Assembly (NCBI RefSeq): GCF_050250495.1
Contig: NZ_JBFWOM010000004.1
Location: 22,553 to 86,552, forward strand
Source of the DNA: Immundisolibacter sp.
GTDB lineage: Bacteria > Pseudomonadota > Gammaproteobacteria > Immundisolibacterales > Immundisolibacteraceae
Direction of reading: 5' to 3'
DNA length: 64,000 nt
Positions 37,441 to 39,178 of the stretch are shown one piece after another; position 1 is the stretch's first letter; each line of letters starts with the position of its first letter. The notes under the pieces are model-generated. The model did no database searches and was not told the origin of the DNA. It saw only the letters and a program-made list of their open reading frames with translations. The position numbers were made by a program, and so were the translations under genes.

Positions 37441-39178
37441 GTGGCCGCAGACGCCACTTTCTGACCTGACGGATTCCGACACGCCGGTGACTTATGGCGT
37501 CGTGAAGCCCGGCGATGAGGATGCAAATGGCATCCTTTTCATTCGAGGTGGAGACATTGCCGACGGACGCGTCCTCACAGACCAGCTTCGAACAATTTCG
37601 AAGAAGGTCTCAAATCAGTATAAGCGGACGCTTCTTCGTGGCGGCGAAATCGTGATGTCGCTGGTTGGGAACCCCGGCCAAGTCGCAATAGTTCCAGAGT
37701 CGCTTCGGGGCGCAAACATCGCGCGGCAAGCTGCGCTAATACGTCTGCGCGAATGCGTGGATTCGCGCTTCGTCATGTACTTCTTGATGTCGCGCATCGG
37801 TCAAGATGCCCTCGGTGCTCATTCACGAGGGTCGGTTCAGCAAGTCATTAATCTGCGGGACCTTAAGACGCTTCGCATTCCGACGCCGCCGTTGGCCGAA
37901 CAACGCGCCATCGCCCACATCCTCGGCACGCTCGACGACAAGATCGAGCTGAACCGGCGGATGAGCGAGACGCTGGAGGCGATGGCGCGGGCGCTGTTCA
38001 AGTCGTGGTTCGTGGACTTCGACCCCGTCCGCGCCAAGCTGAATCCCCCCTCTCCCCCCGGGAGAGGGGCCGGGGGTGAGGGCGCCAAACCCCCTCTCCC
38101 CGCAGCGCTCATCGCCTTCGCCCGACAACTGCGCGGCACCGCCACCGATGCCGAGACCCTGCTGTGGCGACTGCTGCGTGACCGCCGCGTCGCCGGCGCG
38201 AAGTTTCGCCGTCAGCATCCGTTCCCGCCCTACATCCTGGATTTCTATTGCCATGAGCACAGACTCGCCATCGAACTCGACGGCGGGCACCACAGCGAGG
38301 AAGCGCACCAGAGTCGTGATGCGCAACGCTCGGAATACCTGGCGCGATACGGGATTCGTGTGCTCCGTTTCTGGAACAACGAGGTATTGCAGCAGACCGA
38401 AGCGGTGATGGAGGCGATTTACCAGGCGGTGAGCGGTGGCGGGGAGCCCTCACCCCCAACCCCTCTCCCGCAGGGAGAGGGGAGTGGCAGCCTGCCCCAA
38501 GCCCTCGCCGACCTCTTCCCCGCCCGCCTCGTCGACTCCGAACTCGGCGAGATTCCGGAGGGGTGGGGGGCCAAGCCCATCGGCGGACTGGCAGAAATCG
38601 TCGGTGGGAGCACGCCGAAAACCGAACGGGCCGAGTATTGGGAGGGCGGCACACACCACTGGGTCACCCCGAAGGACCTGTCCGGGCTTTCAATGCCGGT
38701 GCTGCTCAACACCGAACGCAAGATCACCGACGCCGGCTTGGCGCAGGTCAGTTCCGGCCTGCTGCCTGCAGGAACCGTTCTGCTTTCGTCGCGCGCACCA
38801 ATCGGCTACCTCGCCATTGCTGAAATGCCGGTCGCGATCAATCAGGGATTCATCGGGATGAAACCGCGACCCGGAATATCCAACCTCTTCCTGCTTCGCT
38901 GGGCCGCGGCAGCGCACGACGAAATCGTGAGCTACGCCAACGGCTCCACTTTCCTGGAAATCAGCAAGTCGGCTTTCCGCCCCATTCTTGCCGTTGCTCC
39001 CCCCACTTCGATCATGGACGCCTTCGACCGGCTGTCGCGTCCGATGTATCGAAAGGTCGTCGAACACGAGCGTGAATCCCGCACCCTCGCCGCCCTGCGC
39101 GACACCCTACTGCCCAAGCTCATCTCCGGCGAACTGCGGGTGGCGGACGCTGAGAAATTCATCGGGAAGGTCGCCTGA
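37430..39178 (+). CDS. hsdS: Type I RM specificity subunit S with in-frame DUF559 insertion
   Basis: TRD1 - [48 protein letters not shown] - insertion - [18 protein letters not shown] - TRD2 - [22 protein letters not shown]. Confidence 0.92.
38047..38482 (+). mobile_element. Putative repeat-flanked DUF559 (Vsr-like PD-(D/E)xK) endonuclease cassette inside hsdS
   Basis: 36-bp inverted repeats at 38047-38082 and 38447-38482 (32/36 identical after reverse complement) bracket [47 protein letters not shown]...RD..R...L...[11 protein letters not shown]. Mobility is inferred. Confidence 0.7.

Follow-up and report, generated by a model that had tools for sequence, protein, structure and literature searches.

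We examined a type I restriction-modification operon within 64,000 nucleotides (nt) of Immundisolibacter sp. DNA (contig NZ_JBFWOM010000004.1, positions 22,553 to 86,552; this whole stretch is hereafter the window, and coordinates are its own unless a locus is named), in which the specificity gene hsdS harbors a DUF559 nuclease domain enclosed by inverted repeats. The methylase subunit gene hsdM (35827-37440, plus strand; Pfam N6_Mtase, E 1.5e-106, and HsdM_N) is followed by hsdS (37430-39178, plus strand; assigned by Pfam and by alignment with empty alleles), whose open frame has 584 residues and whose product (P0001) has 582 amino acids (aa). Between the two Methylase_S halves of HsdS, in the linker that separates target-recognition domain 1 (TRD1) and the conserved helix from target-recognition domain 2, residues 231-336 match DUF559 (PF04480; E 1e-36, 125.6 bits, cut-off 20.6). 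The folded core of this Vsr-like PD-(D/E)xK domain occupies 38099-38434 (plus strand), the Pfam match spanning 38114-38431, and its motifs DFYC, ELDGGHH and RFWNNE are all intact. On either side lies a terminal repeat unit, found by pattern search, predicted to form a hairpin as single-stranded DNA (ssDNA) and translated as part of hsdS: the left unit (38047-38082, plus strand) reads CCCCTCTCCC-CCC-GGGAGAGGGG-CC-GGGGGTGAGGG, and the right unit (38447-38482, minus strand), taken as the reverse complement, reads CCCCTCTCCC-TGC-GGGAGAGGGG-TT-GGGGGTGAGGG. The two are identical at 32 of 36 positions and differ at 4, with hairpins pointing outward and G-rich tails inward, and the second loop is CC in the left unit and TT in the right. 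A preliminary description of this DNA had reported an in-frame DUF559 domain with intact motifs between translated 36-bp inverted repeats of this orientation; the coordinates and sequences agree with that account, and the hsdS frame is translated throughout.

Repeats known as BoxC or PIT have been recognised in E. coli since the 1990s. By sequence, the repeat at the ends of the insert belongs to this BoxC/PIT family, described by Holder et al. (2015; PMC4666352) as the 'TM', an intrastrand triplex motif, and the enclosed domain to DUF559. All four units of the window fit the TM definition, in which a C-rich block is followed by its G-rich complement and then by another G-rich block, the stems being 6-15 nt and the loops 1-6 nt long. 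The other two units are solo: one in hsdM (37019-37057, plus strand, hairpin then tail, identified by pattern matches) and one in the restriction/translocase subunit gene hsdR (41830-45009, plus strand; Pfam HSDR_N, SWI2_SNF2 and T1RH-like_C), where it lies just upstream of the DEAH box (43057-43094, minus strand, that is, tail then hairpin on the plus strand). Both are in frame, and both, like the BoxC/PIT/TM identity of the repeat, had been missed in the preliminary description. The hairpin pattern has 4 matches in the 64 kb compared with 0 in 100 shuffles, and the hairpin-plus-tail pattern 3 compared with 0.00 expected; the 64-kb window holds no fifth TM unit and no second DUF559. The hsd genes are otherwise intact in appearance.

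The inserted segment is compatible with an open reading frame (ORF) over its whole length. It contains neither a start nor a stop codon in the window copy, its frame is open from end to end, and the repeats translate as Pro/Gly/Ser-rich linker peptides. A leader 'MN' is kept as LN (CTGAAT) in the window copy and as MN (ATGAAT) in a second hsdS-borne copy at locus L083. ssDNA folding with ViennaRNA predicts a 10-bp hairpin, and the C block can pair alternatively with either G block. The corresponding z-scores against shuffles are unremarkable (-0.5 to -2.2); because shuffled C-block/G-block sequence folds about equally well, fold energy is uninformative for TM units.

The preliminary description had anticipated an allele of hsdS without the insert, and such alleles proved to be the rule. 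Among about 120 close HsdS relatives listed with the insert-less HsdS as the query, nearly all have 410-470 aa and lack DUF559, including P0002-P0005, the first of which is 85% identical. The closest operon, from a Pseudomonadota metagenome-assembled genome (MAG; L084), shares 93-98% nt identity with that of the window (93.4% for hsdM) and has an empty hsdS and an hsdR without a unit. Its hsdM carries a TM unit identical to that of the window hsdM, so the hsdM unit is older than the insertions in hsdS and hsdR. In hsdS, a segment of 448 nt without counterpart in the empty allele (38042-38489, plus strand; blastn break points against L084 and L082) stands for 16-19 nt, so that the filled allele is a net 432 nt (144 codons) longer, which bears out the original estimate of about 145 extra residues. 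The empty junction reads GCCAAG|ATGGAGGGCCGCGACCCCG|GCCTGCCCC and the filled one GCCAAG|CTGAAT-[cassette]-AGTGGCA|GCCTGCCCC; these were read from blastn coordinates and by eye, a MAFFT alignment having put the left flank wrongly. In hsdR, the empty junction of L084 is TTTCCGGA|AGAGAAAGGCGACCGGCACCC|GACGCT, and between identical flanks the window has 48 nt, including the unit, for the 21 nt of L084 (net +27 nt).

The filled hsdS junctions are also present, with 0 differences, in contigs from a bioreactor metagenome (37970-38900), a wastewater metagenome (38002-38181 and 38155-38531) and a landfill metagenome (38053-38446 and 38417-38557). Because contigs of three unrelated metagenomes span these junctions, the insert is not an assembly artefact. 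Since an operon of 93-98% identity and almost all HsdS relatives lack it, the cassette in hsdS is, on this sequence comparison, a recent gain. Two further relatives (P0043 and P0069, the latter being the HsdS of L083) have DUF559 in the same linker.

The same HsdS linker also carries other domains. In P0056 a GIY-YIG domain (PF01541) occupies the equivalent of about 38040-38490 and is bounded by a duplicated host motif (..LPVRAK.. / ..DPVRAK..), which would make it a second, unrelated nuclease cassette at the same permissive site. Elsewhere in the protein, P0031, P0061 and P0095 have an N-terminal Pol-beta-type nucleotidyltransferase domain, and at L063 (1807-3693) such a domain occurs together with an in-frame DUF559 in HsdS.

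The insert contains no Pfam match other than DUF559, MTES_1575 and DUF2726. It scores 94 bits against NCBIfam PRK09767, below the equivalog cut-off of 218 bits, and on this ground we treat the window domain as a DUF559 family member and not as a YcjD equivalog. The residues conserved at 93-99% among 89 copies (E24, W28, F41-R-R-Q44, D53-F54, E64-x-D66-G67, H70, D79, R82, R95-F-W-N98 and E100) are all present in the window copy. The Neisseria DUF559 protein of PDB 3HRL matches in sequence with E 1.2e-22. An AlphaFold model of the 154-residue insert has mean pLDDT values (predicted local distance difference test) of 91-97 in 10 of 11 ten-residue core blocks and 76 in the remaining one, and of 51-65 in the repeat-encoded ends, which are predicted to be flexible. 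Foldseek ranks 3HRL first (TMt 0.86), followed by the catalytic domain of I-Bth0305I (3R3P, TM-score 0.81) and then by Vsr (1VSR). Where Vsr has Phe62, members of the Vsr-like homing family have a Glu (PMC2677866), a residue that the ELDG of the window supplies. Judged by these features, the nuclease looks active. No biochemical report on any DUF559 protein was found among the full-text papers retrieved that mention the family.

This arrangement recurs in many unrelated genes. The closest relatives of the domain, at 80 loci with 48-63% identity and often within long open frames, include in-frame TM-DUF559-TM copies within proteins identified by Pfam as MetG, MetH, HrpA, PriA, YgiQ, HsdM, HsdS, MmeI, Type ISP and Eco57I-like; in MetG, which accounts for 9 loci, the cassette sits in the linker ahead of the C-terminal tRNA-binding domain. 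HrpA has been entered at two different sites. The cassette also occurs free-standing and at operon gene junctions. Between L056 and L062 nt similarity stops within about 10 nt of the repeats, and between L052 and L059 it spans the domain and the adjacent repeats; the flanks are unrelated in both pairs. Since there are at least 10 unrelated hosts, and since similarity in these two locus pairs is limited to TM-DUF559-TM, the cassette itself is the unit that moves.

At the first HrpA site, L027 (2884-3460) carries a full cassette and L016 (941-1037) only an in-frame inverted TM doublet, the HrpA of L016 having a cassette at the second site; the HrpA genes of these Gallionellaceae-like MAGs contain several TM units.

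Expression of the cassette would depend on the host. The nearest database proteins to the window domain, called as stand-alone ORFs, are 130-270 aa long and end in PSPxxPLPEGEG, with both repeats inside the ORF. As the cassette is open-frame and includes its repeats in the ORF, it would rely on host transcription and translation, and within a gene it would behave as a guest domain with its own linkers. At operon junctions it lies exactly between FtsX-like and ABC ATPase genes (lolE|lolD; L210 2501-2980, L212 1309-1788) and between HlyD-like and ABC ATPase genes (HlyD|ABC; L211 2501-2983, L215 2001-2480); in L210, L211 and L212 each of its two boundaries has overlapping stop and start codons, and in L215 short gaps remain. 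ATGAA is found at both junctions in L210 and L211 (2/2 loci) and might represent a start codon brought by the element, a preferred target or a duplication. Because both copies are start codons under selection, we leave ATGAA unexplained and build no claim on it.

The same site is occupied in different alleles of the HsdS linker (the window, L083/P0069 and P0043), the MetG linker (9 loci), lolE|lolD and HlyD|ABC, most of which vertical descent would account for. The MetG-resident DUF559 is about as conserved as MetG itself: between L006 and L010 the host N-terminal part is 66% identical, the host C-terminal part 95% and DUF559 93%. This likeness to the host indicates purifying selection on the nuclease and mostly vertical descent. 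The idea that in-frame copies form one exclusive clade was dropped, as a neighbor-joining tree puts most of them in a large clade with free-standing copies interspersed and has a second in-frame group, and as the nearest database proteins are called as stand-alone ORFs. One 266-aa ORF annotated as 'methionine--tRNA ligase subunit beta' (P0204) consists of DUF559 and the tRNA-binding domain, which points to genomes in which MetG was divided by the cassette between two ORFs (a 'fractured gene'). Plasmid and phage collections contained just 43 and 2 records, respectively, with relatives of the domain, mostly chromids or mislabelled chromosomes, and gave no sign of cassette travel on phages or plasmids.

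An association between the palindrome and PF04480 genes, suspected in the preliminary description, emerged strongly, with fixed polarity. Using a strict hairpin-plus-tail pattern and counting as near anything within 150 nt of the domain, we found 80 TM units in the 28.9 kb near the domain of 81 relatives compared with 36 in the 392.7 kb further out, a 30-fold difference. Left-hand units are '+' in 35 cases and '-' in 5, and right-hand units '-' in 34 and '+' in 6. For 80 relatives of the E. coli DUF559 gene ycjD (L217-L296; compare L081 1205-1241), the 44.7 kb around the gene contain 90 units and the 189.5 kb further away 10, or 38-fold. The consensus of 23 two-ended elements is T|CCCCTCTCCC-N3-6-GGGAGAGGGG-N2-3-GGGG(G)TGAGGG, and its variants are common to both ends: the left-right similarity within an element is 0.79, compared with 0.57 between loci (p 8e-18). 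Solo units are likewise more similar to the units that flank DUF559 in their own locus (0.73) than otherwise (0.60; p 3e-8).

Approached from the repeat, the picture is complementary. The strict TM pattern matched at least 120 loci in the genome collection (the loci examined total 873 kb), spread over Planctomycetota, Chloroflexota, Verrucomicrobiota, Actinomycetota, Cyanobacteriota, Acidobacteriota, Myxococcota and many Pseudomonadota. DUF559 lies within 200 bp of 5 of the 135 evaluable units, most units being solo, and all 4 DUF559 genes in those 873 kb adjoin a TM unit. Among the sampled pattern matches, 12% lie in long open frames, compared with 53% of random positions, a depletion of about 4-fold. 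Outside the 34-38 nt unit nothing is conserved except a T before the hairpin, present in 63% of 164 units scored where the preceding base is not C.

The association extends to E. coli and well beyond. In most Enterobacterales genera sampled (Enterobacter, Leclercia, Kluyvera, Phytobacter, Yokenella and Rosenbergiella, along with Escherichia ruysiae), a '-' unit begins where the tblastn match to YcjD ends and is usually followed downstream, at a distance of 27-136 nt in most loci, by a '+' unit. E. coli K-12 retains only the distal unit of the ycjD pair, TMECO no. 9, which lies 168 nt downstream of ycjD. The Synechocystis, Deinococcus and Azospirillum copies have TM-like units within about 100 nt, tails facing outward; the Klebsiella copy has a TM-like unit just downstream and the Neisseria copy a degenerate unit upstream. 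Downstream of the NGO0050-type DUF559 gene of Neisseria gonorrhoeae, whose product is the protein of PDB 3HRL, three TM units stand at a 281-nt period (L085 2085-2678). Two kinds of joint between units occur in activated-sludge contigs (run X8): 38082>38447, where a '+' unit faces a '-' unit over a 31-nt spacer in a doublet like a MITE (a miniature transposable element with inverted repeats), and 38082>38047, where units stand head-to-tail over 5-9 nt, in tandem.

From the anatomy of the insert, its recent gain, the recurrence in unrelated genes, the polarized association of repeat and nuclease, the matching of variants and the purifying selection on the nuclease, we regard a selfish element analogous to repetitive extragenic palindromes (REPs) and their REP-associated tyrosine transposases (RAYTs) as the best overall explanation, with a probability of roughly 0.65. 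We consider it very probable that a selfish cassette of wide occurrence, composed of a DUF559 nuclease gene between inverted BoxC/PIT/TM repeats, is represented by this insert. The preliminary description had likewise proposed a REP/RAYT-like selfish unit: the analogy draws support from the association, the empty alleles and the recurrence, whereas a RAYT it is not, the enzyme having a Vsr fold in place of HUH, and mobilization by DUF559 is something that we infer.

The mechanism that we envisage would begin with a cassette landing in frame in a flexible inter-domain linker and surviving there inside a protein-coding gene, as its end-to-end ORF compatibility and linker-like repeats make possible. 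Host transcription and translation would then yield it as a portion of the host protein, with no splicing. The nuclease, probably a dimer like I-Bth0305I (a homodimer that cuts a 14-bp pseudopalindrome; PMC3239194), might recognise the palindrome within the TM unit, whether as duplex or as extruded hairpin or triplex, and nick or cut there. We consider it probable, if less so than the existence of the cassette, that DUF559 acts on TM units in some such way. Recombination or gene-conversion repair from another TM locus could then copy TM units and the intervening DNA to new places, a specific route of spread that we offer tentatively, as more doubtful than not. The outcome would be a maintained population of solo and paired TM units, as RAYT maintains REPs and REP doublets forming hairpins (REPINs), and selection would purge coding-region insertions unless they are in frame and in a tolerant linker.

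Several observations weigh against this interpretation. No target-site duplication was found at hsdS, hsdR or 23 other element junctions, and the junctions are unclean, with 19 nt (hsdS) and 21 nt (hsdR) of the empty alleles replaced, so that the insertion chemistry is unreadable from the sequence; the replaced nt and clustered junction substitutions would be compatible with repair-mediated events or with insertion plus compensating deletion, a matter of fit and not of proof. About half of the sampled DUF559 relatives have no strict TM unit nearby, and the orientation rule varies between clades. The solo units of hsdM and hsdR have 6-nt extended-stem loops, compared with 3-nt loops in the DUF559-flanking pair, and because of this difference need not descend from the window cassette. 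As the MetG cassette mostly co-diverges with its host, many copies appear to be long-term residents rather than active movers. Finally, no activity of a DUF559 protein on TM DNA is known.

The first rival, which we consider unlikely, is that TM repeats are selfish or structural in their own right and are spread by host replication and repair, with DUF559 a neighboring host or domesticated nuclease. On this account, DUF559 might process the hairpin or triplex, the G+C-rich hairpins might be terminators or mRNA stabilisers of the DUF559 gene, and the hsdS cassette would be a passenger of recombination between TM units. The absence of a nearby DUF559 at 130 of the 135 evaluable units speaks for it, as do the terminator-like position of the unit at the gene end in ycjD orthologues, the apparently vertical, conserved state of DUF559 in MetG and ycjD, and the tie that Holder et al. 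drew between TMs and instability with no dedicated enzyme (PMC4666352). It is harder to square with units at both ends in fixed inverted polarity, with between-locus similarity that stops no more than about 10 nt from the repeats or shortly past them, and with the variants that match between DUF559 flanks and solo units of the same locus. A terminator role, moreover, makes no sense in the many copies where the units lie within the reading frame.

Very unlikely, in our view, is an invertible switch, in which the 36-bp repeats would flip the DUF559 segment and truncate HsdS after TRD1, causing phase variation of the type I system. Truncated HsdS subunits are known to function as dimers, and inverting 38083-38446 in silico yields a stop 9 codons after ...GGEG. 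Moreover, predicted programmed-inversion targets are enriched (odds ratio 14) in 'DUF559 domain-containing protein', a name listed there with no explanation (PMC9881135); such a listing is the expected product of flanking inverted repeats. Contigs of four metagenomes contain no strand-changing joint, although contigs hide minor variants, no recombinase gene adjoins the segment, and the cassette also resides in essential genes such as metG and priA, whose switching-off would be lethal.

A further alternative, to which we give still less credence, is the adaptive acquisition of a nuclease tethered to the methylase/specificity complex, which the preliminary description had raised as its second possibility. 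Restriction-modification hosts are indeed over-represented (HsdS, HsdM, MmeI, Type ISP and Eco57I-like), and the nuclease residues are intact. The idea found no support, given that the cassette is also in MetG, MetH, YgiQ, HrpA and PriA and between ABC-transporter genes, that the near-identical L084 operon and almost all relatives have no insert, and that the operon already has HsdR. An intein, intron or assembly chimera is scarcely conceivable despite the superficial similarity to an intein of a host gene with an in-frame, homing-endonuclease-like domain: neither a Hint nor an intein domain came up at E up to 0.01, the junctions N|PPSPP and GEG|SGS have neither a Cys/Ser/Thr start nor a His-Asn then Cys/Ser/Thr end, an Rfam scan of 36800-39400 (E up to 1) returned no intron or ribozyme and a lone chance viral hairpin match, and both junctions are present in independent assemblies.

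Two accessory genes lie between hsdS and hsdR, one encoding SLFN/AlbA_2 and HATPase_c_4 domains (39178-40587) and the other RhuM/Fic (40829-41833). In L084 (7462-9727), the SLFN/AlbA_2 gene is exchanged for an AAA_14/DUF4143 ATPase gene; because this first accessory gene differs in an operon of 93-98% identity, the hsdS-hsdR interval appears to be a variable cargo slot. All 4 TM units of the window are inside the three hsd genes and none is in the other approximately 55 kb, and the G+C content of the hsd genes is 0.66, compared with about 0.70 across much of the remaining window. This confinement of the TM units to lower-G+C genes suggests that the hsd operon arrived from, or swaps segments with, a TM-rich gene pool.

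In its most general form, the proposal is that DUF559/YcjD-family Vsr-fold nucleases are the missing partner enzymes of BoxC/PIT/TM repeats, which occur in most bacterial phyla, the two jointly constituting a new class of mobile DNA that would spread by the action of a small PD-(D/E)xK nuclease on a structured 36-nt repeat, with neither transposase nor recombinase, and that could also live as an unspliced in-frame guest domain in essential proteins, an 'intein without splicing' with the repeats as linkers. We rate this generalization as falling just short of an even bet. DUF559, to which E. coli YcjD belongs and for which a structure has been solved, is a very large family annotated as being of 'unknown function', and the repeat-nuclease link gives each of these orphans a testable function, for which E. 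coli, with ycjD and 23 TM units, is a ready model. The cassette also illustrates how selfish DNA can reside in essential genes with neither an intron nor an intein, by bringing its own flexible linkers and using host expression. For annotation, MetG, HsdS, HrpA and other proteins 'with a DUF559 domain' would be better described as carrying insertions than as functional fusions; for protein engineering, the places of insertion point to linkers and permissive sites that nature has already validated. There is relevance, too, to repeat-driven rearrangement and to the shuffling of restriction-modification genes.

In comparison with known systems, the closest relation of the repeat is the TM of E. 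coli. K-12 has 23 copies, all intergenic, for example TMECO no. 1, CCCTCTCCCTGTGGGAGAGGGCCGGGGTGAGGGC, and among them are five inverted pairs, in each of which a unit with a TTA loop ('A') is invariably matched by one with a CCG loop ('B'); the motif is present in more than 260 genomes, E. coli units form a stable intramolecular triplex in vitro by nuclear magnetic resonance (NMR) and circular dichroism (CD), and the E. coli loci are rearrangement hot spots (PMC4666352). The window units have the same blocks (CCCTCTCCC, GGGAGAGGG and GGGGTGAGGG), loop lengths, 34-38 nt size and many-phyla spread, and their CC and TT second loops resemble the E. coli A+B pairs, with a gene in between. They differ from the K-12 units, which were reported as intergenic and with no mobility gene, in that all four are translated and two bound a nuclease gene; we therefore treat an intergenic position as a descriptive trait of TM units and not a defining one. 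Holder et al. found no transposase or integrase near TMs and called their mechanism and origin unanswered; 'DUF' and 'endonuclease' each have 0 occurrences in that paper (PMC4666352). We found no paper linking BoxC/TM to DUF559 or describing the in-frame cassette in the full-text literature, outside which most subscription journals lie.

The enzyme is nearest to the Vsr-like 'EDxHD' homing endonucleases such as I-Bth0305I (PMC2677866, PMC3239194), with which it shares the catalytic fold and the Glu in place of Vsr Phe62. Those enzymes, too, are found inside genes for DNA-metabolism proteins, and I-Bth0305I acts as a dimer on a pseudopalindrome. They are, however, multidomain proteins with no TM ends, located in group I introns or split inteins or fracturing the host into two ORFs, whereas the window domain has about 110 aa, is repeat-bounded and read through, and is 22-23% identical to 3R3P. 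Inteins are likewise in-frame selfish endonuclease insertions in conserved proteins, expressed from host signals, but they splice, and the cassette has no Hint domain or splice-junction residues; because an unspliced insert must stay in the mature protein, the cassette is confined to tolerant linkers.

Among small repeats, Rickettsia palindromic elements are inserted in frame in genes that stay open. The solo units of hsdM and hsdR resemble them and other in-frame MITEs (PMC10969869) as short palindromes in open genes, but the Rickettsia elements have about 100-150 nt and belong to one genus, whereas TM units have about 36 nt, unrelated sequence, a distribution over many phyla and a candidate partner nuclease. 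The cassette is built like an insertion sequence, with 36-nt terminal inverted repeats around a single ORF, and TM doublets with no ORF (the E. coli pairs, site 1 of L016 and the metagenome joints) look like non-autonomous, MITE-like derivatives; it differs from insertion sequences in lacking both a target-site duplication and any transposase of the DDE, serine, tyrosine or HUH type.

A further parallel is with REP/RAYT. In both, a small nuclease gene lies between inverted palindromic repeats that elsewhere are mostly solo or paired and have locus-specific variants, and the gene is often single-copy, vertical and conserved, as are the ycjD and MetG copies. The window enzyme has a Vsr-fold PD-(D/E)xK architecture, whereas RAYT is an IS200/IS605-like HUH Y1 transposase, and the TM includes a third block that forms the triplex and lacks a GTAG/CGTC tag: the base profile at TM unit ends contains neither GTAG nor CGTC, the units beginning with T and then a C run. 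With no HUH enzyme and no such tag, the cassette is not a REP/RAYT member. It differs further in that the gene-plus-repeats unit occurs in many different genes and can be an unspliced, in-frame part of the host. Both the repeat and the domain family were known; what appears to be new is the tie between a repeat that had been an orphan for decades and a large protein family that was an orphan as well, as a putative selfish system of repeat plus nuclease.

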